DNA of 64,000 nucleotides from a virus. The position numbers and the translations under genes were made by a program. Location of the stretch: the IMG/VR virus record IMGVR_UViG_3300029790_000003, one strand, 5' to 3'. Below, in pieces: positions 6,941 through 50,040 of the stretch. Numbering within the stretch: the first letter of the stretch is position 1; each line of letters begins with the position of its first letter. The notes under the pieces were generated by a model. It made no database searches, had not been told where the DNA came from, and was given only the letters and a program-made list of their open reading frames with translations.

Positions 6941-8047
6941 TTACCATTCTGGTGCTGGCATATCACGAACATCGTATGACATATTTACGTATACTTCATA
7001 ACGATCTGGAATTATTGTATTATAATTTAAATCAGTTGGAAAATATGATTGTAAGTAATCAACACTTCCTTTTCTTTGAACATTAGCAAACAAACCATCG
7101 TCACATCCAATTATTCTATTATTTTTATAGTATACAACTGCCATATGGGTTCCACGATTGTTTTTTCCGTTATTCTTAACTGTTAAAACAACACCCTCTG
7201 TTCCTAAATTTGATGTATACGTAATATTCTTTGCATTAAAATCAAAATATGATACATTTTCTGTTTTTAAATTAATTTTTACAGAATCCCATTGACTTCC
7301 ATAATTTGTCATTAATGTAGCATATTTCATCCCTGGCTCAATTACACACGTATCATACTGATTACTTACTGAAACTATTTGTCCATTCAAACAAAAGGCA
7401 CAACTAATGTCAACCGCAACCGCATAATTGTAATTATTTTGAAGAATTATAACTTCTCCCCTTGGCGTTGCTTCTGCGTGATACGTTACATTGTTTTTTG
7501 AAGTACTCGTATTACCGCCAAATCCACCATTAGAAGGCTTTTTCACAGTAACTTTACAGGTAAATTTCTTTCCAAGAATGGTTGCTGTAATATTGGCGGT
7601 TCCTGCCTTTTTCGCAGTAATTTTTCCATTTTTTACGGTCGCAACGCTTTTCTTTGATGATTTCCATTTTACAGTCTGCTTAGTTCCTTTTACTTTTATG
7701 GTACTTGTCTTTCCAACTTTTAAAATAAGGCTTTTCTTGCTAAGTTTTGGAGATTCCACAGTTACTTTGCAAGTATACTTCTTTTTACCCACTTTTGCAG
7801 TGATTGTAGCAGAACCCGATTTCTTGGCTGTTACTTTCCCAGAACCACTTACCGTTGCCACAGATTTCTTGCTGGAAGTCCATTTTGTCTTTCCTTTTGT
7901 TCCAGACAATTTCAGTTTCAAGGTTTGTCCAGTAAGTAACGTTGCCTTATTCTTACTAATCTTCCCTGCCGCAGATACTGGAACTGCCATACAGACAATC
8001 AATAGCATGACTGCCAGAACCGATAGTAACTTTTTCACTTTCTTCAT
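6941..8047 (-). CDS. Secreted protein with two Big_2 (bacterial Ig-like) repeats (368 aa)
   Basis: Signal peptide; two ~55-aa repeats (KWxSSKKSVATV..GK.TAKK.G.A.ITA...GKK.TCKVTV) typical of Big_2. Confidence 0.65.
   Translation of the reverse strand: MKKVKKLLSVLAVMLLIVCMAVPVSAAGKISKNKATLLTGQTLKLKLSGTKGKTKWTSSKKSVATVSGSGKVTAKKSGSATITAKVGKKKYTCKVTVESPKLSKKSLILKVGKTSTIKVKGTKQTVKWKSSKKSVATVKNGKITAKKAGTANITATILGKKFTCKVTVKKPSNGGFGGNTSTSKNNVTYHAEATPRGEVIILQNNYNYAVAVDISCAFCLNGQIVSVSNQYDTCVIEPGMKYATLMTNYGSQWDSVKINLKTENVSYFDFNAKNITYTSNLGTEGVVLTVKNNGKNNRGTHMAVVYYKNNRIIGCDDGLFANVQRKGSVDYLQSYFPTDLNYNTIIPDRYEVYVNMSYDVRDMPAPEW
7552..7927 (-). repeat. Tandem ~190-bp coding repeat (two Big_2 domains)
   Basis: Protein-level duplication visible in translation. 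Confidence 0.45.
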
Positions 8048-8110
8048 ACACTCATACCTCCCAATAATTGATACCCATATTGTACCACTTTGGGACGCAT
8101 TCTGAAAGCC

Positions 8111-8344
8111 TTATTTCGCTTTTCTATCAATTTCCGCAGTTACGGCAAACAAAAGAGCTTCGGCAAATTTTGCGCCAACCGAATCGGAGTATTTATCGTG
8201 AATCTGGCTTGCTTCCATGGTGAGATTTTCCCACTGCGAAATATCGTCCTTTGAGATAAAGGCATACTTCTTGTGGAGGTTCCATATTTCCTGCCAGATG
8301 GAAAAATAAGTCTGCTTAAAGTCCATCAGCGTAAAGAACCCCAT
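8111..8344 (-). CDS. Hypothetical protein (77 aa)
   Basis: ORF only. Confidence 0.35.
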   Translation of the reverse strand: MGFFTLMDFKQTYFSIWQEIWNLHKKYAFISKDDISQWENLTMEASQIHDKYSDSVGAKFAEALLFAVTAEIDRKAK

Positions 8345-8621
8345 GATATTTCTCGAACCTATGCTCTTGCTTTATTTCTGGGTATTTGTTCCAATCTACC
8401 TTGCTATAAAACATCTTTGTTGGCCTGGCAAATAGTTCCTTACCGCCATACAAAGCTCTGTATACTACCAAATCTTCCCCTGTTTCTGTATGTCTGGCAT
8501 ATCCGATAAACTTATACAAATACTCGTTGTTGCGTGGCTCCTTGATGGTTTCTCTCTTAAAGTGCTGTACAATGTCTCCTGGTTCAAATAATGGTCTATA
8601 CATTTTCTTTCTCCTCCTCAC
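8316..8621 (-). CDS. Hypothetical protein (101 aa)
   Basis: ORF only. Confidence 0.4.
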   Translation of the reverse strand: MRRRKKMYRPLFEPGDIVQHFKRETIKEPRNNEYLYKFIGYARHTETGEDLVVYRALYGGKELFARPTKMFYSKVDWNKYPEIKQEHRFEKYHGVLYADGL

Positions 8622-8878
8622 CCAGCTAAAAGAATATCTCCAGGATTAACTTCATGGAGTTTTGTTATCTCAACATCTTTCTTACTCTCCCCTTCCCAAA
8701 TCAAGCCAAGGCTCAGAGCGATTCCTTTAGCTTCGTTTTCACTTCTGGCGCATACAAGCACATCATTAATACCCATATCGCATTCTATTCTCTTTGTTCT
8801 TGAAACCAAGTAAAGATTCCCGTTTATTTCCATGCTAACGTCCTCCATAATTTGTTGACTTCTTCGCCCGAAAATCAA
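8618..8878 (-). CDS. Hypothetical protein (86 aa)
   Basis: ORF only; 4-nt overlap with downstream gene. Confidence 0.4.
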   Translation of the reverse strand: MIFGRRSQQIMEDVSMEINGNLYLVSRTKRIECDMGINDVLVCARSENEAKGIALSLGLIWEGESKKDVEITKLHEVNPGDILLAG

Positions 8879-8938
8879 TTTTATTGGCTTATGCCTATAT
8901 TTTATAGTGTGAGTGGTTTTGTAGCGGATCCGGTTATT

Positions 8939-9571
8939 TTATCGCAGTAATTCTTTATCAATAATCTGGAAATTTGCCCTGTGGATATAAAGAGCTTTTC
9001 CGTCAATCATTAACTTTGTCATTTTAGGTAGATCGTCCGGGATTTTCCAGAACACCTCGTCACCAGAATATGCGGCTATCGGTTGTCCAAGTTGAGATTT
9101 GATTACTACAACCCTGGATTTCCCAAAATAATTTTTATAATAATTCACAATCCCGGCTATGTATGCATTCTCTGAAATCTTCCCGGTTGAATGGCTGGTA
9201 ATATCTTCCTGGGTAAAATCAACCTCCGGCTCCAATCCTTTTTGCTCAAAAATACAAGTATCACCACAGCTTTCAATTTCTTTACCGTCAATCAGAATTG
9301 TAATAACGGAAGATACGTCATAGCTGGTTGTTTCGTTACCCTCACTATCGTAGCCCTTGGATTTGGTTTTATTCCCGGCAATGTTGATCTTGTCCCCAGT
9401 GGTAGTCATAACCTTTTGACCGTAGTTGTCGTAGGTATAGATTGTGTAACTGTTTCCAGAAAGATTTCCTTTCACGTCATTCATGTAATCGTCATTCGCT
9501 GCACAGCCTGTTAGCCCTGTGATAACGCAAATAAAGGTAATTATCGCCAGTAGTGTTTTGATTCTTTTCAT
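8939..9571 (-). CDS. Lipoprotein (210 aa)
   Basis: Signal peptide with lipobox LTGC (ITGLTGCAAN). Confidence 0.65.
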   Translation of the reverse strand: MKRIKTLLAIITFICVITGLTGCAANDDYMNDVKGNLSGNSYTIYTYDNYGQKVMTTTGDKINIAGNKTKSKGYDSEGNETTSYDVSSVITILIDGKEIESCGDTCIFEQKGLEPEVDFTQEDITSHSTGKISENAYIAGIVNYYKNYFGKSRVVVIKSQLGQPIAAYSGDEVFWKIPDDLPKMTKLMIDGKALYIHRANFQIIDKELLR

Positions 9572-10234: not shown

Positions 10235-11452
10235 TTAAGGTCTAAAATCATGCTTTTTTCTTTCCTCGCTTTCATATTCTGCACATTTTTCGGCGCAAAT
10301 AGTCCCTCCACAGGAAAACATAGCTTCTGGCATTTGCACTTTTTCATCATATTCTTTGCCTAATTTAAGCATTGAAAACATATTACCATAGTCTTCTCTA
10401 GTAACACAATTTGACCAATATTTATTTGACGCATAATGATTTAAAAGTCTTAATCCTTGTTCGGTAGTTAAAACTGGGTGAGGTTCATTGTATGTTTGAT
10501 AGTATTCCCTGTAATATTCTCTTAGCAATTCTGTGAAACCATTAAGGTACGGAATTAAGCTAACTCTATTTTGCGGCGAATATCTTTCAGAAAAGAAATA
10601 TCCATTATTTTCTAAATCAAGCCCATATTTAATATTTTTTATGCTCTTTTCGCCGTCAATATCTAGTATTCCTACAAAACATTTATCCATCATATAGTTT
10701 TGTGCAAATTTATCCTTATCAAATTTAACGCTTGGATATTTGACAAATATCTTCAAATACCGTTTATTTTTCTTTTCCTCCGCAAAATCTTCTTCTGTGA
10801 TTAAATATGTTTCAACATAATATTTTAAAAGTTTCGGATTAAACTCTATTCCTCGTGATGTTAAAACTTTCTTGATATAATTGAAATAATACTTTGACTT
10901 ATTATCCCCCTTTGAGTGATTAATACACACTCCTGGTATTTTTGAAAATGCCATTACAATTTCATCGTATGAAAATTCTTTACAATATGATTTTACGGAT
11001 TTTTCCATTGCGTCCATAATTTTATCTGCTGAAAATCTTTTCAACCAGATTCCTATTTCTTTGCGTCCGTTATCGTTTACATCACACCCTGTCAATTGTT
11101 CAAAATATTCGGTTAGCATGTTTACTGCCATATTATCATAATCGAGTAGCTCTTTCTTCCATTCAGCAATCATTTCCAACTGTTCTTTTTTCTCTGCAAG
11201 ATCTTTTAATGCTTCCTGTTGAAACGATATTGCTTTGGAATCTAAAATTCTAGTTTTTCCCTTCCCTCTATTGCAGTCGCGGCACGAAGTAATTAAATTT
11301 GTAATCTCATTATCCCCGCCCTCTGCTACTGGCTCAATATGGTCTACTTCCAAAATTACGTCTGGTGACATTCTTCCACAGTATTGACATGTGAATTTGT
11401 CTCTTTTGAATACTTCAAATCTGATTTTCTTGCTAAGTGGTTTTCTTGCCAT
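10235..11452 (-). CDS. HNH endonuclease-domain protein with ~330-aa C-terminal extension
   Basis: Start moved to MARKPL (RBS AAAGGCAGG); CQYCGR..EVDHIEPVAEGG..NLITSCRDCN HNH motif. Confidence 0.65.
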   Translation of the reverse strand: MARKPLSKKIRFEVFKRDKFTCQYCGRMSPDVILEVDHIEPVAEGGDNEITNLITSCRDCNRGKGKTRILDSKAISFQQEALKDLAEKKEQLEMIAEWKKELLDYDNMAVNMLTEYFEQLTGCDVNDNGRKEIGIWLKRFSADKIMDAMEKSVKSYCKEFSYDEIVMAFSKIPGVCINHSKGDNKSKYYFNYIKKVLTSRGIEFNPKLLKYYVETYLITEEDFAEEKKNKRYLKIFVKYPSVKFDKDKFAQNYMMDKCFVGILDIDGEKSIKNIKYGLDLENNGYFFSERYSPQNRVSLIPYLNGFTELLREYYREYYQTYNEPHPVLTTEQGLRLLNHYASNKYWSNCVTREDYGNMFSMLKLGKEYDEKVQMPEAMFSCGGTICAEKCAEYESEERKKHDFRP

Positions 11453-11580
11453 AGATTGATACCTGCCTTTCGTATAAAAGAGTGCCTTGAACTGTATGTA
11501 AATCAACAGGCAGGCGGCAAGGCATTTCCGCTTTTCGATGATCGGTCTAGCCTGTTGGTTTTACCAAAATTAACGGTTAA

Positions 11581-40719: not shown

Positions 40720-40751
40720 ATTATCACCTCACTTTAACACGTTAATTTGTA

Positions 40752-40822
40752 AATAAAAAAAGAGAATGTCACCGGGTAAAGCTTATTCCCGGAAAATTTC
40801 CGGGTGTTCGGGTACATTCTCT
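40752..40822 (-). terminator. Rho-independent terminator (long hairpin plus TTTTTTTATTT)
   Basis: AGAGAATGT...ACATTCTCT stem with internal CCGGG pairing, T-run on the minus strand. Confidence 0.55.
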
Positions 40823-41425
40823 AAAACTCAAAATAAAATATTCTGTTTTCTTTGTTGCTGATACCTTAGCACAGTTTTTAATATCTTGTCAAATTTAATT
40901 TTGCATAAAATAAAGCCCTTTATTTTGTCAGTAATTAATAAATAATATTTGTGGTATTATATTATAATCTTCATTTATATTTATATTATATATATTATTA
41001 TACGGTACTGTATAGCATATCTTTTAATAAACTCCAGCTTTAGGAATCTAGGAAGGGCAGAGAATAATTATATAATTATATATAATATAAGGGCGGCTAC
41101 ATTTTCGCAGATTTGCATAATAAAAGCCAGACCTTCCAGGAGTTTCTATCCGGCGTGATCTGGCTTGTTATGCGTGTTGTTTAATTAACGATTCTGTGTA
41201 CTTTCAGCCTCTGCCCTTCCTGAGTTCCGTCAGCTCTCGTTATCTGATAGCCTAAAGAAGTTTTAGAAAAATGTCAAGCGGTATTTTAAAAATATTTTTC
41301 TTGACAATTTGCCAAAAGCTGTGTTATTAAAATATTAACAGGCTCGGCGGCGGTCTGTACTCTGTCCATAGCCGCCACAAATAAGCATATTAAAAGCCCC
41401 TGGATAATTTCCTAGGGCTTTATTT

Positions 41426-41596
41426 TTATTCTTCCTCTTCTTCCTCTAACCATATTTGACACTGCTTGCCGTCCTCTTCGTAGCTGATAGCTTCACCAGC
41501 TTCCAGGCGTTCCCGCCAGTCCTCCGGGTAATTCTCCGGTCTGTAAATACAGTTTCCCGGAAGGAATTGATTTCCGCGCATTTCATTTATTTTCAT
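41426..41596 (-). CDS. Small acidic protein (56 aa), below the ORF-track cutoff
   Basis: RBS GGAGGGAAAAT then ATG at 41596; MKINEMRGNQFLPG...EEEEEE. Confidence 0.35.
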   Translation of the reverse strand: MKINEMRGNQFLPGNCIYRPENYPEDWRERLEAGEAISYEEDGKQCQIWLEEEEEE

Positions 41597-42185: not shown

Positions 42186-42225
42186 TCTGCAACCACTTCC
42201 TTTCTATGGTTACAGTATATATTAT

Positions 42226-42608
42226 TAGTGCTTAATTGTCAATAGTGATCTGTGCTTAATTTACATTTTTTTCATTCTATCCATTTTATCAAGTTCTGCA
42301 AGAATTAATTCCCTTGCGAACGCGTTTGTTTTTAATCCATATGCGTTTATTCTGTCGAGCGTTCCCTGCGGTAAGATCACATTTATTCTATCCTTATTTT
42401 TCATACATTTCTTTACTGCTTCTCTATTTTTTACTGCTTTTTCTTCTGCTGTTAATTCTGCCATGTTTATTCCTCCTTTATTTTTCTTCATTATAATATG
42501 TGCGTGCTTAATTGTCAATAATTTTAGTGCTTAATCATAATGCACAATTTGCCGCAAATAATTAGTGCTTAATTTATTTATTATGCCAATTGCTATTAGT
42601 GCTTAATT
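42226..42608 (+). repeat. Six direct copies of (TA)GTGCTTAAT(T) flanking the RHH gene (putative operator/iterons)
   Basis: Copies at 42226, 42252, 42504, 42526, 42563 and 42597; 16-mer GTGCTTAATTGTCAATA occurs twice. Confidence 0.65.
42261..42464 (-). CDS. Ribbon-helix-helix DNA-binding protein (67 aa)
   Basis: Start MAELTAEE (RBS AAGGAGGA); ..DRINVILPQGTLDRINAY.. RHH-like. Confidence 0.55.
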   Translation of the reverse strand: MAELTAEEKAVKNREAVKKCMKNKDRINVILPQGTLDRINAYGLKTNAFARELILAELDKMDRMKKM

Positions 42609-42831
42609 AGTGTATTATATAACCATCAACAGAGAACAAAAGAAACAAACAACCGGAACCGCCCGAACCACTCAACACAATGAGGACATAGGAACCGGCA
42701 CCGATTAATTGAAAAATTCTAGTTCTTGGACAAAACAAAAAAGCTGGCTGCATCCTACCAAGACGAACAGCCAGCACCAAACTAAAAAAAGAAAGGCAAC
42801 CCCATTATAACAGGGGTGAGGGTAAAAAACA

Positions 42832-44234: not shown

Positions 44235-44434
44235 TTTTATTATTTCCTGGCTCCCAGGGTGAAGGGAAGAAAGAAAAAAATATGGACTTAATGCAAATAA
44301 TAAGTTATATACGTGAAAAACATTTGGAAGCTGAGTTTAATAAATTTAGAAATTATCGGTGCATTTCTAGTGTAGAACCTATAGAAACAACATTAATTCT
44401 ATTTTATAAAAATCAAAAAGCATCATCGAAATAG
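44231..44434 (+). CDS. Hypothetical protein (67 aa)
   Basis: ORF only. Confidence 0.35.
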   Translation: MILLFPGSQGEGKKEKNMDLMQIISYIREKHLEAEFNKFRNYRCISSVEPIETTLILFYKNQKASSK

Positions 44435-44466
44435 ATTTCCACCGCTTACCAGCTACCAGGCTGGCG

Positions 44467-44496
44467 GCACGTTCACGGCGTGCAAGCGGTTTTTTT
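44467..44496 (+). terminator. Rho-independent terminator ending the plus-strand operon
   Basis: GCACG-TTCACGG-CGTGC then AAGCGGTTTTTTT. Confidence 0.6.
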
Positions 44497-44653
44497 GGCA
44501 TTCTGTCAGTAGTACCTTGGCAATTTAATAGCACAAGTCAGCAAATAAGCAAGCTATTTAAGCCGCAAATGGCTTTTAATGCTGTTAATGGGGATTTATG
44601 CCACTATTGCATTATAAGCCGTTTATGAGCCTTTAAATGCGTTACATGGTTTA

Positions 44654-44682
44654 TTGACTGTCTGCGGCTATGGGTGTATAAT
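44654..44682 (+). promoter_or_regulatory. Near-consensus sigma-70 promoter (TTGACT-17-TATAAT) firing into an ORF-free region
   Basis: -35 at 44654-44659 and -10 at 44677-44682 with exact 17-nt spacing. Confidence 0.55.
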
Positions 44683-45439
44683 AGCCTTGTGTAGCTATGT
44701 GCGGCTATGCCTTATTTGCGTACCTTTCCAACAGGCGCATTATGTCCTCTTATGTGCGTAGCTTGTACAGGCTTCCCGGTGATCTGTCGCAGCTGTCCGG
44801 GTTATATATCAATTATTGTTGTATGGCGCTGTATTTGCCATTTTAAGGCGTTTTATAATCGTAGTCAATAAAGTATAGGCTAAATACGTTACAAGCTATT
44901 TAAGGCTTATTTTGCAAGAGTATTATTGTATTTTAACGCCACGTTATATGTTACTTGTTGCTATGGCCTATTATCTGTGGGCGGTTGGTTCTGGTCTGCC
45001 AGGTCTACGGCTGGCTGTCGTCTTTGTTGATATTCAATCATTCCCGGAATCGTCACGGCTTCATCAGCTTGGCGCGGTATCGGCTCCCGGTGCTGCCCCT
45101 GGTTGATTTTGTGGCAATGGAAAACCGCAGTTGTTCAAAACTTCAATAGTGCAACTAACTTGTGGATGATTCCTAAATTCTAACATTATTTTGGCAACAA
45201 AAAATCAAGGAAATCCAGAAAAAAGTGGCAACCAGAAAAAATCTCGCATTTTCTAGTTACCACTTAAATTTTAATTTTGCACAAATATTTCTATAGCGTA
45301 AAGTTCCAAATAATTCAAAATTCACAATTTGTTTAATCCTTCTTTCTTCCGTGTTCCATATCTTCTGTAGGATGATTTCTCTAAACGTTCCGTCCTCTTC
45401 ATTTGGGACTTGGAAAGTTTCTTCTTTCTCTGGTAATTA

Positions 45440-46120
45440 TCAGTCGTTGTTCCCATTCACGCACTCCTTGTTAATCTTCTGATTCCTGGTTTCAAAGTTT
45501 ATAATTTCCGTGTCTGTTTCCAATTCTTCCGGGATTCTTCCAACAATGATAACTCGCAGCGGCTTCAATCTGCGTTCCATTTCCTTGAAACCAACGCAAA
45601 ACTCCAACCGTGCTGCCTTGCTCTTTACTCTTCCATTGGTGCAACAGGCAACTGTGCTTCCCTCTGGTAGCCCATCAAAGCACCAGTCCCAACAGTATTC
45701 TGGTAATATGTTTACGTTCGGAATTACTGGAATATCATTCAAGATCATGTAGTGAGACAATGCATGATTGCGGTATTTATTCCACAGGCACATAGCTAAC
45801 GGCATTCCATTCTTGCCAACCGATATGCTGAAATCTGGCATAATGACTGCATGAAAACATTTTAAATGCTCCATATACTTGTCTGGCTGATTCCATAATC
45901 TTTGAAACTGTACATCGTCCACATAGAAATTTACATCCAGTTCCCGGTGGTTCTTAATCTTCCGGCTAAAGCTCTCCGCAAAGTCTACAGTATCTTTTCC
46001 AGGATGGATAAAAGTCTTTGGGATTTTCGGGATTTCGTACTTACCATCAAGGTCTGCATCCGTGATTAAAAATTCTTTCATTACGTCATAAGCTGTATGT
46101 ATCATTGATTCCACTCCCAT
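45440..46120 (-). CDS. Hypothetical protein (226 aa) immediately downstream of the integrase
   Basis: ORF only; Cys/His/Trp-rich. Confidence 0.5.
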   Translation of the reverse strand: MGVESMIHTAYDVMKEFLITDADLDGKYEIPKIPKTFIHPGKDTVDFAESFSRKIKNHRELDVNFYVDDVQFQRLWNQPDKYMEHLKCFHAVIMPDFSISVGKNGMPLAMCLWNKYRNHALSHYMILNDIPVIPNVNILPEYCWDWCFDGLPEGSTVACCTNGRVKSKAARLEFCVGFKEMERRLKPLRVIIVGRIPEELETDTEIINFETRNQKINKECVNGNND

Positions 46121-46128
46121 TTTTTCTC

Positions 46129-47841
46129 TTATAGTGCTAAAAGGTACTTATATTTGAAAAATACCATATCTTGTGTCTTAATGCAAGTTTTCCTACTAAA
46201 TATCTTGTGTTGTTCTGAATGTAGAGTAAAAATCATATCGTCAGAACGGCGCAAGGGAAACCCCCATTTTTCAAGGCTTCCAGACCTCAATTGAAATGTT
46301 AGTGTTGCACATGTAACCGCCAACGGTTCAACGGTAATTTTCTCAAAAAGTTCATTAACAATCTGTCTGTTAATATCTTGTGGAGTAACACCTTTGAACT
46401 TTTCTAGCTGTTCTTTAATAGCACTTAATTGTATTTCTACTGGCTCTGGACTTTTGGTATTTTGGATTTCTAGAATATGACTCTCAATCTGCTTTATCTG
46501 CTTCACGTATTCTTTATTTCTTGAAATAAATTCATCATCAGATATTTTTCCATCCAGATTATATTCCAGTATTTTTTCACGTTTTTGTTTTAACAGATCA
46601 ATCTGTTTTTCAAGTCGTGAGATTTCGTTTTTATTGTCTGGAATGTTTTTGATCGAGGACTGCAAAATTTCAAAATATTCCTCCAAAATGCTGTCAATAT
46701 TTTCAGAAGATTTATTTATCAATTCTGCAATTATTTCTTTCAGTTCTGATTCTGCCAGCCCGAACGAATTGCAAGAAGCTGCTCCGTTTTTTATTTTATA
46801 GCTGCACACCCATCGAACATCCTCTTTTCCTCTGATATAATGTTGCTTCATCCAGTATGGTGCTCCGTCATTTGCGCAGAAAAGTTTTCCAGTGAAAATA
46901 TTTTCGCTTTTAAAAGAGGTTCTTCTTGATTTTATGGCTTCTCCACGCTCTCTTAAATATGCGTTTGCCTTTTCCCAGGTAGCTTCATCAATGATCTGCG
47001 GTACTCTTGAACCATCATCCTTAAACATTATCCATTCTGACTGCGGAAGAAATTCTTGTTTCTTGGTGAACATATCGACAACCTTTACTTTTCCTCCACA
47101 ATAGTATCCTTTGTATTTTGGATTCCGAATAATATTTTTTATGACATCCCGGTTGATTTTCCCACCTTTGAAACTTCTGTATCCCATATCCCAGAGCTTT
47201 TTTTCGATTCTTGGCGTAGATATTCCGGAAGCGTAATCTTGAAAAATCATTCGAACCATGTCCGCTTCTTCTGGAACCAGTTCGAGCTTTCCTTGATTGT
47301 TTGAGTATCCATACATTCTGTGCCCGAGAACAACACCATTTTTGATTGACTGTGCGTGTCCAAATTTTACTCTTGAAGAAAGCTTGCGGATTTCGTCCTG
47401 CGCTACCCCAGCCATAATAGTAAGTCGGAACTCACTATCATCATCAATAGTGTTAATTCCATCGTTTTGGAACCACACGCATACGCCATAAGATAACAAT
47501 TCCCTGGTATATTGGATGCTGTCAAGAGTATTTCGTGCAAATCTTGAAATTTCTTTCGTAATAATCATGTCAATTTTTCCGAGCTTTGCATCTCTGAGCA
47601 TTCTTTGAAATTCTTCTCTTTTATCCGCATGTATTCCAGAAATACCATCATCAATGTAAGAACCAGCAAACTTCCATCTGTTGTTAGAATGTATCAGATC
47701 TTCAAAATGTTCCTCCTGGTGCTTAATGGATGCTTGCTGTTCAACTTTTTCAGTAGAAACCCTGGCATAATAAGCAACATTTAGTTCAATGTCGTAAATA
47801 GAGCAATTTCTTAATTTTTCTCTGACATAATAAATATTCAT
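46129..47841 (-). CDS. Large serine recombinase (phage integrase, ~570 aa)
   Basis: Start MNIYYV (RBS AAGGGAG); YYARVSTEKVEQQ catalytic motif; recombinase domain, zinc-ribbon cysteines and a long C-terminal coiled coil. Confidence 0.85.
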   Translation of the reverse strand: MNIYYVREKLRNCSIYDIELNVAYYARVSTEKVEQQASIKHQEEHFEDLIHSNNRWKFAGSYIDDGISGIHADKREEFQRMLRDAKLGKIDMIITKEISRFARNTLDSIQYTRELLSYGVCVWFQNDGINTIDDDSEFRLTIMAGVAQDEIRKLSSRVKFGHAQSIKNGVVLGHRMYGYSNNQGKLELVPEEADMVRMIFQDYASGISTPRIEKKLWDMGYRSFKGGKINRDVIKNIIRNPKYKGYYCGGKVKVVDMFTKKQEFLPQSEWIMFKDDGSRVPQIIDEATWEKANAYLRERGEAIKSRRTSFKSENIFTGKLFCANDGAPYWMKQHYIRGKEDVRWVCSYKIKNGAASCNSFGLAESELKEIIAELINKSSENIDSILEEYFEILQSSIKNIPDNKNEISRLEKQIDLLKQKREKILEYNLDGKISDDEFISRNKEYVKQIKQIESHILEIQNTKSPEPVEIQLSAIKEQLEKFKGVTPQDINRQIVNELFEKITVEPLAVTCATLTFQLRSGSLEKWGFPLRRSDDMIFTLHSEQHKIFSRKTCIKTQDMVFFKYKYLLAL

Positions 47842-47922
47842 AGTGCATTTCTCCCTTAATAAACAGGGAGTGGAATCATATAAAGTATAACACCTCATAT
47901 AAATCCACTCAATACATTGTCG

Positions 47923-48108
47923 TTACTTTCTAATGCTGATTTCAGCTTTAATTTTATCTCTTGTTTTCTCATCTATCAGACCAAGTGAGAACATTCTTTC
48001 GTTTATGGCATACAATATAGCTTTTTCCATTAATTGTCCCTCCATATAATTATCTCGTTTTAAGCGCTGTTTTTCTTTATCTTTTGTATGCCCTATAATT
48101 TCTACCAT
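47923..48108 (-). CDS. Hypothetical protein (61 aa)
   Basis: ORF only. Confidence 0.35.
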   Translation of the reverse strand: MVEIIGHTKDKEKQRLKRDNYMEGQLMEKAILYAINERMFSLGLIDEKTRDKIKAEISIRK

Positions 48109-48611: not shown

Positions 48612-49135
48612 TTTTCAGCACCTCCCAATCTGGCAGTATCTATAATTTTTAAAAGGTCTGGACTTAGTTTTCTTCGTTCTTGTTCTCTTTGCACTTCTGC
48701 CCGATACGTCCTTTGAAAATTTGATTGAACTACACTCCACCATGTACCATCTACATTTTCAGATACCGCCCATTCTCTAAGTTGTGCCGGACTTGATACT
48801 GCTTTCTGAATGATTTTTGGAAGCTTATCAAACTCTGTTTCTGCGTTATATGTAGAGTTCTGAATAGCTTTGCATACCTTTTCCCAGGCTTCTGTTTCAT
48901 TCAGCTCTTCCTTTTGCGGTGCAACGCTTTGTGCGCATTGCCTTAATGCGGCTATTGATGGCTCTTTCCATTCCGTCTGCATATATTTCTTTAATCCGAA
49001 ACTTAAAAGCTTGTAATCCAGGTCTTTCAGTAATCCGTACCAAGTATCAAAAGCATATTGATCTGGCAGAAATGCTGGGGAAGTGTACACAGCTTTCATT
49101 GCCTTTACCAGTACCGCCCATTCTTCTCTTGTCAT
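48581..49135 (-). CDS. Replication-associated hypothetical protein (184 aa)
   Basis: Directly downstream of the replisome organizer. Confidence 0.45.
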   Translation of the reverse strand: MTREEWAVLVKAMKAVYTSPAFLPDQYAFDTWYGLLKDLDYKLLSFGLKKYMQTEWKEPSIAALRQCAQSVAPQKEELNETEAWEKVCKAIQNSTYNAETEFDKLPKIIQKAVSSPAQLREWAVSENVDGTWWSVVQSNFQRTYRAEVQREQERRKLSPDLLKIIDTARLGGAENCQIENHGEN

Positions 49136-50040
49136 ACCCAGTTATCCACCTCGCTTACCCTGTTTTGTATTTTCTCCATGTAACTTTGAGGCTTGTTACC
49201 GGATTTATCAAGATAGTTCCCTTCAAATACCTTCGCAAAGTTACCGGGCTTTAAGAACCAATCGAAAGTTATCATCCAACCTTCTTTGTTCTGGCCTTGT
49301 AAGAAGCTGCTATGGCGAATGTTTTCAATGGCTTCTAAGATATCGTCCATATGGTTCTGACGGATTCTGGCTTTCACTGCTTGTTCTCGTTTTGATGTCA
49401 TTCTTTTTACAGGGTTAATACCAAATTCTTCCAGAGTATTCCATTCATCAATGATTCGTTGGACGTCAGTCTGACGAATAGTATCTTTAGATACTATTAA
49501 ATCATTTATATCTTTTTCTTTATCTTTATCTAATTCTGTATCTAAATCTAATTCTAAATCTTTATCTAAACCTATATCTTTATCTGAGTGCGTCTTTCGT
49601 TCGTCTATTTTGCGTCTTTTCTGCGTCTGCCTGTTTGAACGCTCTATTAGTTTGGTATCATCAATAGAATTTCCATTTGTCAGTGAGTAACTTCCGTTAT
49701 CTTTCAATAGCAGTTTCTTTTTTTCATCAGTGTATGAAGTTTCTATATATCTGTCTCTGGACAGGGTGTTGTGCATTCTCCAATGTTTAATAACGATCAC
49801 GCCATCATCAAACAAGATAACAAATCTCTTGGCAATTAGAAGCTTCAAATCATCATCATTCGCTCCTATTATTTTTTCAATCCTCTTTGGGTTTCCAATA
49901 AATCCATCATCGTCAGCTCTCATGTTTAGATGAAAATAAAGACATTGTGTTGATAACGGCATATCAAGGAAAGCATCTGTATCAACAATTTTCATTGTGA
50001 ACATTCTTTTATTTGCCAATTTTGAAATTCCTTTCTCCAA
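49132..50040 (-). CDS. Phage replisome organizer (N-terminal Phage_rep_org_N-like) with internal origin iterons
   Basis: FTMKIVDTDAFLDMPLSTQCLYFHLNMRADDDGFIGNPKRIEKI.. N-terminal domain; the iteron DNA encodes DKDLELDLDTELDKDKEKD. Confidence 0.65.
   Translation of the reverse strand: MEKGISKLANKRMFTMKIVDTDAFLDMPLSTQCLYFHLNMRADDDGFIGNPKRIEKIIGANDDDLKLLIAKRFVILFDDGVIVIKHWRMHNTLSRDRYIETSYTDEKKKLLLKDNGSYSLTNGNSIDDTKLIERSNRQTQKRRKIDERKTHSDKDIGLDKDLELDLDTELDKDKEKDINDLIVSKDTIRQTDVQRIIDEWNTLEEFGINPVKRMTSKREQAVKARIRQNHMDDILEAIENIRHSSFLQGQNKEGWMITFDWFLKPGNFAKVFEGNYLDKSGNKPQSYMEKIQNRVSEVDNWV
49509..49629. repeat. Iteron array, copy B (putative origin inside the replisome-organizer gene)
   Basis: Short (T)ATCT(A/T)AAnC units and tgcgtct repeats; homologous to copy A at 10111-10217. 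Confidence 0.65.

Follow-up and report, generated by a model that had tools for sequence, protein, structure and literature searches.

A conserved gene-free interval with an invariant predicted promoter between two converging operons of human-gut phages

The non-coding interval 44435-45321 (~0.9 kb) of IMG/VR record IMGVR_UViG_3300029790_000003 was characterized by comparison with related phages. The window, i.e. the whole stretch of 64,000 nucleotides analysed, derives from an ~82-kb human-gut phage genome encountered very commonly in metagenomes of the human gut. Six small genes form a plus-strand operon that ends at 44434, while the 3' part of a minus-strand operon codes a large serine recombinase (LSR; 46129-47898), a DUF4417 protein (45440-46120) and then a small protein of 44 residues. 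From this layout the interval, which is shorter than the one originally delimited, is the space between two converging operons. It is tentatively read here as a non-coding buffer in which one element, the predicted promoter P(+), is strongly selected and would drive an untranslated transcription unit. The existence of the transcript is likely from the sequence; its regulatory, possibly antisense, role and its length of ~450-570 nt are presumed. The reading is supported by the conservation of P(+), synteny, absence of coding and of RNA structure, strand composition, and the strong terminators that bound the interval. The interval would belong among the intergenic non-coding transcription units of phages. 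It belongs to no known RNA family and is neither a demonstrated attachment site (attP) nor a demonstrated origin. The elements that carry the argument are the following:

44654-44682, plus strand: P(+), sigma-70-type promoter TTGACT-17-TATAAT, predicted start near 44689
44689-44724, plus strand: weak start-proximal hairpin with the U-rich tail CTTATTTGCGTACC, terminator-like in the scan
44441-44496, plus strand: intrinsic terminator of the plus operon, a branched hairpin (44441-44490) and a run of seven T (free energy -25.7 kcal/mol, z = -2.4)
45217-45265, minus strand: terminator of the LSR-DUF4417-small open reading frame (ORF) operon, a 17-bp stem (45223-45265) and a U run (-22.7 kcal/mol, z = -4.8)
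45322-45456, minus strand: gene of a very basic 44-residue protein, identified by its Shine-Dalgarno sequence, conservation and codon periodicity

P(+) matches the consensus at 11 of 12 positions. Only five sites of the 64-kb window reach at least 11/12, four of which lie at 39-45 kb, in the early control region. Conservation of promoters and repeats was counted over 125 unique sequences of the window's family: the -35 hexamer of P(+) is identical in all of them, the -10 hexamer in 123, and the 17-nt spacer length is invariant. In a second, sister family the homologue of P(+) is the best promoter-like site of the gap in 41/41 loci. There it reads TTGACG-17-TATTAT/TATCAT/TATGAT and is positioned 600-890 nt from the DUF4417 stop codon, with a spacer sequence that diverged between subfamilies. 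Hexamers close to TTGACA/TATAAT, a spacing of 16-18 nt and retention in relatives, which are the marks of a sigma-70 promoter, are thus all found at P(+), and the rightward promoter of the original prediction is confirmed at its coordinates. P(+) is under strong purifying selection and is the best-supported element of the interval; by its sequence it would be active as a promoter. Its -10 hexamer is covered by a palindrome, GGCTAT-N9-ATAGCC, that occurs once in the window. The repressor operator GTGCTTAAT is present neither over P(+) nor elsewhere in the interval, from which we infer that P(+) is probably not controlled by that repressor. A short hairpin with a UUAUUUG tail lies 35-92 nt past the predicted start. 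Its fold in the window is weak (-8.2 kcal/mol, z = -0.55); the sister family keeps the tail behind a different 7-bp hairpin, and the element is deleted in some loci. It is a possible attenuator.

The genomic setting of P(+) is conserved over a large phage group. The DUF4417 protein is found with the same neighbours on many contigs and has matches in 164 IMG/VR stretches; the contigs concerned mostly measure 77-85 kb. A conserved non-coding pattern derived from the interval itself retrieves stretches of 99 viral and 52 metagenome contigs. The gene-free interval is kept in two abundant human-gut phage families, represented by ~270 viral and metagenome contig stretches. The sister family was found by protein search and context look-ups and has a DUF4417 identity of 63-67%. 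The order LSR, DUF4417, small ORF, gene-free gap of 0.8-1.3 kb and convergent operon of small genes is common to both families, and order and gap persist where DUF4417 identity has fallen to 63-65%. What differs between the families is the serine-recombinase cassette, which is swapped; the replication genes and the DUF4417/small-ORF/spacer unit stay syntenic. No annotated phage record matches the interval at the DNA level by blastn, and the nearest cultured relative according to the terminase is a Clostridium innocuum phage (39% identity). Note that 21 of ~40 near-full-length IMG/VR contigs have one end 20-27 kb upstream of DUF4417, which hints at fixed genome termini located a few kb past the window's right end and not at the interval.

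The strand composition changes at P(+). The plus strand of 44690-45135 (446 nt) has a G+T content of 0.605, with only 19% A, which places it in the top 0.24% of 446-nt tiles of the window; the bias is weak upstream of P(+) and reversed after 45136. Both the GC and the AT skew have the same sign downstream, but not upstream, of P(+) in 40/40 distinct sequences of the sister family. Transcription-associated deamination leads to a C-to-T bias on the non-template strand, and in unconstrained sequence the G+T skew may be the trace of this process. The G+T-rich domain starts at the predicted P(+) start and ends near 45135, in agreement with the ~450-nt transcript guessed originally. The long non-coding RNA of the original prediction is thereby retained in part: the conserved promoter and the 446-nt domain speak for it, but the RNA is not structured, has no Rfam match and evolves mostly at about the synonymous rate.

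Transcription from P(+) would start at ~44689 and proceed rightward, away from every gene. The polymerase would pass the weak start-proximal attenuator, cross ~450 nt of nearly unconstrained sequence and head to the strong terminator of the serine-recombinase/DUF4417/44-residue protein operon. The product would be an untranslated, unstructured RNA of roughly 450-570 nt together with short attenuated species. Since P(+) is invariant while the transcribed sequence drifts, its function most likely resides in the act of transcription or in complementarity in cis. Candidate roles are to interfere with read-through transcription coming from the opposing operon or to pair with it as antisense. A leftward RNA from a facing promoter-like site, P(-), is also a conceivable pairing partner in the lineage of the window. 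A further-reaching proposal, which is rather unlikely, is that the unit represents a new class: a fast-evolving, unstructured phage long non-coding RNA of ~450-570 nt with an invariant constitutive promoter beside an integrase/DUF4417 cassette, with a transcription-dependent function and conservation of the whole unit across hundreds of phage genomes from the human gut. Such a transcript might, for example, control read-through between the converging operons, serve replication that depends on an R-loop, or, once the phage is integrated, carry transcription outward over attP into host DNA.

Both hairpins bounding the interval have the composition of intrinsic terminators, a stable GC-containing hairpin followed by a U run. 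RNAalifold keeps three compensatory pairs in the hairpin of the plus operon, which is conserved in the distant relatives L244 and L245. The terminator originally proposed there is correct, with a hairpin that extends over 44441-44490 before the T run. The terminator of the minus operon was not among the features originally described; read on the plus strand it is weaker (-13.6 kcal/mol, z = -2.3). These two elements and the short start-proximal hairpin with its tail are the only supported structures. A large structured RNA of the GOLLD/ROOL/HEARO type, or a ribozyme- or riboswitch-like RNA, might be suspected in a long ORF-free phage interval that has one GC-rich segment and whose plus-strand fold at 44940-45215 beats shuffled sequences (z = -2.6). 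It is nevertheless highly improbable, as this fold is not conserved (RNAalifold energy of -5.4 kcal/mol on 49 sequences) and insertions/deletions (indels) and larger deletions occur throughout the interval. RNAalifold on 37-70 sequences per segment, for both strands and both families, yields 0 to -7 kcal/mol except at the terminator hairpins. The best-conserved block (44831-44925) has an energy of 0.0 on both strands, with no consensus structure. A conserved fold with compensatory changes, the general signature of structured non-coding RNA, is found nowhere outside the terminator hairpins. The Infernal/Rfam scan proposed with the original prediction provides no identity either: Rfam 15, searched over the whole window at the gathering threshold and including GOLLD, ROOL, riboswitches and group I/II introns, has no hit in 44435-45321. 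The best hit of a permissive scan, mir-17 with 27.5 bits for a cut-off of 49.5, is sub-threshold and at chance level. Complementary targets in trans elsewhere in the window amount to short matches expected by chance.

Absence of coding from the interval was established on an alignment of 69 unique relatives that are 73-100% identical to it. All window ORFs of at least 20 residues in 44435-45321 (20-64 residues) carry frameshifts or stops in most relatives. Indels of 1, 7, 10, 11, 17 and 25 nt, which are not multiples of three, are common, and the 3-periodicity of substitutions is 1.1-1.4x vs 4.5x for DUF4417. A kept reading frame with 3-periodic substitutions is found only at 45322-45456. The original claim of ~950 bp without a credible ORF accordingly holds for 44435-45321 but not for the 3' end, where a genuine gene is located, the one coding the 44-residue protein. 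An AAGGAG Shine-Dalgarno sequence precedes its ATG by 7 nt, it overlaps the DUF4417 stop codon by 17 nt, its codon periodicity is 6.6x, and all 69 of 69 relatives keep it intact, encoding 15 variants of the protein. The gene accompanies DUF4417 down to 65% identity. Its homologue follows DUF4417 in L092, a distant 84.7-kb relative, and is annotated as a gene of 45-47 residues in L244-L249; the gene is uncalled in the close relatives L001-L010 and called in more distant ones. Fragmentary plus-strand ORFs of 64-147 residues are found in the direction of P(+). The long ones present in some relatives (84-147 residues) are attributed to chance because the plus strand is A-poor. A hidden or decayed gene was considered and rejected: the long plus-strand ORFs have no Pfam or PHROG match and no periodicity. 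Alignment with relatives, which had been suggested originally as a means to distinguish structured RNA from protein, shows the conservation pattern of neither in 44435-45321. The neighbouring DUF4417 protein is confidently modelled by AlphaFold (pLDDT 86, pTM 0.82) with an alpha/beta fold, to which Foldseek finds no similar PDB entry (best E = 0.13, TM no higher than 0.36). The literature on DUF4417 describes it only as a phage-enriched domain of unknown function, at times fused to ParB-CTPase folds.

Most of the interval drifts. The third codon positions of DUF4417 (pairwise identity 0.84) provide a rough neutral baseline, and the identity of the interval to the window in relatives tracks this third-position identity, i.e. 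approximately the synonymous rate. The ~450 nt downstream of P(+) evolve mostly at about this rate and with many indels. Three segments, to which no strand is assigned, illustrate this drift:

44497-44653: region upstream of P(+), near-neutral, with lineage-specific repeat copies (pairwise identity 0.78-0.92)
44726-44830: variable, indel-rich segment that holds the inverted repeat (IR)-flanked element (pairwise identity 0.68-0.85)
44936-45135: GC-rich (0.52), A-poor, dispensable segment, evolving at or above the neutral rate

Conservation above the baseline is confined to the following segments:

44461-44510: plus-operon terminator
44646-44700: P(+)
44831-44925: block of conserved sequence
45136-45160: island specific to the window's family
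45201-45300: terminator of the minus operon and a block of 0.95-0.99 identity

The GC shift described originally exists in 44936-45135 (0.52) but is not a trait of the whole interval, whose GC content of 0.39-0.41 compares with a window mean of 0.378 (standard deviation 0.039). The repeated motifs are all present in the window: GCGGCTATG twice (44664, 44701), GCTATG four times, AGCTATTTAAG twice (44552, 44894) and TAAGCCG twice. They are however mostly private to the window's sublineage, the first AAGCTATTTAAGCC copy being found in only 10/125 unique relatives and the second GCGGCTATG copy in 29/125. The IR-flanked segment is present at 44775-44801, one base off its predicted position, but it folds like shuffled sequence (z = -0.04) and is deleted or truncated in several relatives.

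Relatives show how much of this sequence can be lost or replaced. Segment 44726-44830 carries deletions of 10-50 nt and one insertion of 25 nt, and L061 is without most of the IR-flanked element. The identity of 44936-45135 is 0.57-0.84 with gaps counted and 0.81, about neutral, with gaps excluded. L172 is devoid of 44787-44991 and L230 of 44994-45088, while unrelated, AT-richer sequence occupies the place of 44885-45250 in L043, L051 and L054. Mobile DNA is also found. An IS200/IS605-family element lies in the homologous spacer of L244 directly after the small ORF (5921-7452 of L244); it codes a 375-residue TnpB (OrfB_IS605/Cas12f-like TNB domains) and a 130-residue Y1 transposase. An insert of ~98 nt between the copies of a 12-bp direct duplication, GGGGTGGTTGCT, is present in L042 (~7033-7144, window ~45078) and in L224, and resembles a miniature mobile element. 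In L233, a single metagenome contig, an insert of ~1.74 kb (7529-9269, window ~45455-45462) is found at the boundary between DUF4417 and the small ORF.

An alternative is that the interval is a mostly functionless spacer. It would be a decayed promoter-gene-terminator 'moron' cassette of foreign, GC-richer origin, tolerated as a landing pad for mobile DNA, whose promoter is kept incidentally. The similarity of interval identity to that of DUF4417 third codon positions, the large deletions or replacements, the insertions in L244 (TnpB/TnpA of the IS605 family), L042 (~98 nt with the 12-bp duplication) and L233 (1.7 kb), the segment of 0.52 GC within a 0.38-GC genome and the fragmentary ORFs of 64-147 residues in the direction of P(+) all fit this view. 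It is considered somewhat improbable, although it retains considerable weight. Unless P(+) has a function, its complete invariance in both families is difficult to account for, genomes that are otherwise tightly packed keep a gap of 0.8-1.3 kb down to 63% DUF4417 identity, several blocks are conserved well above the neutral level, and the candidate ORFs have neither a protein-family match nor periodicity.

The conserved blocks other than P(+) and the terminators, and the site that faces P(+), are the following:

44840-44868, minus strand: P(-), promoter-like TTGACT-17-TAAAAT facing P(+), 10/12 match
44831-44925, no strand assigned: cross-family conserved block, pairwise identity 0.84-0.96, alignable with the sister family
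45136-45160, no strand assigned: island CTTCAATAGT(T)GCAACTAAC, conserved above baseline and only within the family of the window
45269-45305, no strand assigned: non-coding block of highest conservation, GCTATAGAAATATTTGTGCAAAAT, flanked by the small ORF and the terminator of that ORF, identity 0.95-0.99 in the family

P(-) was not part of the original prediction. Its -10 hexamer is 157 nt from that of P(+) in the window and 115 to 182 nt from it among relatives. The hexamer is TAAAAT in 82/125 sequences and TAAAAA in 41/125, the -35 is TTGACT in 85/125, and the homologous sequence of the sister family is not recognisable as a promoter. Given this degeneracy or absence in relatives, a sense/antisense pair is not a conserved feature of the locus: of the two facing promoters of a cis-antisense pair, P(+) is conserved and P(-) is not. 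Block 44831-44925, the part best conserved between the two families, features two TTTWARGC motifs on the same strand spaced by 57-58 nt; its TTTWARGC...TATA motif has no other occurrence in the window. Block 45269-45305 is 90-97% identical in L244-L248, some of which have a non-orthologous LSR. The island at 45136-45160 shows the palindrome TAGTTGCAACTA in most relatives, with only 12 bp of symmetry, and a 1-nt deletion inside it characterizes the window's sublineage (13/125 unique sequences).

A number of observations weigh against the untranslated transcription unit preferred here. The activity of P(+) is predicted from its sequence, and the G+T skew could reflect a replication strand bias instead of transcription. 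Near-neutral evolution, deletions and mobile insertions indicate that most of the sequence is dispensable, as would equally be expected of a spacer with little function. One third of the family has a degenerate P(-), and the sister family has none. Finally, blocks 44831-44925 and 45269-45305 are conserved without RNA structure, which the transcription model does not explain.

The adjacency of the interval to the LSR operon raises the question of the integration site. In this alternative, the interval would carry the attP of the LSR, and P(+) would face outward, so that in an integrated phage its transcription crosses the junction into host DNA. The interval is the sole sizeable non-coding stretch by the LSR operon, as small Cys-rich ORFs fill the DNA upstream of the LSR gene. 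In a relative whose LSR is 44% identical the GC content rises abruptly, from 0.42 to 0.58, immediately past the stop codon of the LSR, resembling a prophage end beside an integrase gene; an att site near the 3' side of the LSR operon is for this reason a reasonable lead. The island 45136-45160, with its palindrome, is conserved only in the family that has this LSR type. The proposal is nonetheless unlikely. The LSR is 94-100% identical within the window's family, so that its attP should be a conserved block. The sister-family LSR has 454 residues (L246-L249, 3461-4825) vs 589 and is 27% identical in the catalytic domain only, and the best-conserved blocks, 44831-44925 and 45269-45305, are shared with this family of non-orthologous recombinase and therefore are not the attP of the LSR. 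L244 has an orthologous LSR (77% identical) but is devoid of block 44831-44925, and conservation across families does not co-vary with the type of serine recombinase. A 40-50-bp imperfect dyad co-varying with the recombinase, as expected for an attP, was not identified in the interval. The nearest approach is the island, whose dyad has only 12 bp with a palindromic centre and suffered the 1-nt deletion in the window's own lineage. No phage-host junction was found within 44436-48000 in ~300 related viral and metagenome contigs, all of which are collinear across the interval. The search for a lysogen in 185,579 species-representative genomes (GTDB, one per species) detected neither an integrated copy nor a close relative, with the reservation that integrated forms may be absent from the data searched. 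The interval has no similarity to the putative junction, a possible prophage end, in L243 (MT837325.1).

Note that the LSR ORF of 589 residues is called at 570 residues in relatives and that the L244 orthologue aligns from residue 20; the LSR start is probably Met20, at about 47841. In L010 the LSR is split into 155 and 395 residues. At 11485-11557, minus strand, an int-alpA RNA motif (Rfam RF02996, 45.4 bits for a cut-off of 35.8) lies directly upstream of a 423-residue ORF (10235-11506), which may be a second gene of the recombinase/integrase type.

A role in replication has also to be weighed. The interval might be a transcription-dependent or RNA-primed origin, possibly a second one. The replication module ends at it, its strong and conserved promoter serves no gene, and its promoter-strand G+T-rich sequence is followed by an AT-rich stretch. 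Most sister-family loci (L245, L246, L248, L250-L285, among others) carry a perfect DnaA box (TTATCCACA, opposite strand) ~10 nt past the P(+) start, and ORF-free transcribed origins of ~600 bp have a precedent in mycobacteriophage prophages (PMC7157519). The hypothesis is quite doubtful. Iteron-like arrays are found in the replisome-organiser gene instead. A perfect DnaA box is missing from the window's family, which has one box with one mismatch (45161-45169), from L244 and from three other sister lineages, and no locus has a cluster. The genes converge on the interval instead of diverging from it, an integrase is present in the phage, and the genes examined include no parABS. The interval has no conserved repeats: no 8- or 9-mer occurs at least three times in it, and a motif of 10-22 bp in at least three copies conserved in relatives, as in iteron or partition arrays, is not found. 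The binding-site array (origin or partition) considered originally is thus not supported, the repeats of the interval being lineage-specific and the arrays lying elsewhere.

Two such arrays were located. The replisome-organiser gene (49132-50040, minus strand) contains tandem repeats at 49504-49628, composed of an 18-nt unit in ~4 copies (TTCTATATCTTTATCTAA) followed by an 11-nt unit in ~3.6 copies (TGCGTCTNTTC). These iteron-like repeats are the probable replication origin of the phage; where phages have an organiser of this type, their origin usually lies within its gene. The operator-like motif (T)TAGTGCTTAAT has six copies at 42225-42609, which overlap a consensus promoter (TTGACA-17-TATAAT, minus strand, 42518-42490) and a promoter of 11/12 match (42242-42214). 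This region is likely the immunity switch between divergent early operons. A second gene-poor stretch, 40720-41430, has extremely AT-rich blocks of TA repeats (40935-41010 and 41060-41095) followed by a part of higher GC content, at whose end a terminator-like hairpin lies (41398-41417). At 41366-41398, three 10-mers of the interval recur.

Non-coding DNA of ~0.9 kb is seldom retained in phage genomes that are tightly packed. If the untranslated transcription unit proposed here is real, it offers a simple, testable case of a conserved promoter with a freely drifting transcript and suggests that transcription itself controls the relation between converging operons or the neighbouring integrase cassette. 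The analysis also corrects the annotation of these phages. The gene of the 44-residue protein was missed by gene callers in the close relatives examined, the probable replication origin is assigned to the organiser gene and a repressor operator array to 42.2-42.6 kb, and the serine-recombinase cassette is recognized as exchangeable next to a fixed DUF4417/small-ORF/spacer unit.

Among known systems, the lambda OOP, P22 sar, P1 c4 and P4 CI RNAs are untranslated or antisense phage RNAs of ~70-200 nt that are transcribed from their own promoters. The unit described here shares with them a host-type promoter without an ORF in a control or accessory region of a temperate phage, transcription that converges on a neighbouring operon, and terminators that bound the unit. 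It differs in that those RNAs have defined stem-loops and known complementary targets, whereas the present one is long and unconstrained, with no conserved fold and no target found in the window. Face-to-face promoters produce antisense pairs in ColE1 (RNA I/RNA II) and R1 (CopA/CopT) and interference in coliphage 186 (pR/pL). P(+) and P(-) of the window face each other similarly, and overlapping untranslated RNAs would result; unlike in those systems, the P(-) -10 reads TAAAAA in 41/125 relatives, the site is unrecognisable in the sister family, and there are no conserved kissing-loop hairpins. The interval adjoins an LSR gene cluster as do the attP sites of phiC31, Bxb1, TP901-1 and A118, but no 40-50-bp imperfect dyad or junction was found in it and its conserved blocks ignore the LSR type. 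Like GOLLD (RF01998) and ROOL (RF03087) it is long, ORF-free and carried by a phage whose host is Firmicutes-like, and it is set apart from them by the absence of an Rfam match and of a covariation-supported structure. A last comparison is with the extrachromosomal mycobacteriophage prophages that do not use RepA, in which poorly conserved, ORF-free transcribed regions of ~600 bp are sufficient for autonomous replication (Wetzel et al. 2020, PMC7157519). In those phages parABS is present and an integrase is missing, whereas the window has an LSR and iteron-like repeats in the organiser gene. Like the RNA-based origins of these mycobacteriophages, the interval is ORF-free, poorly conserved and found at the position of the integration/maintenance cassette.

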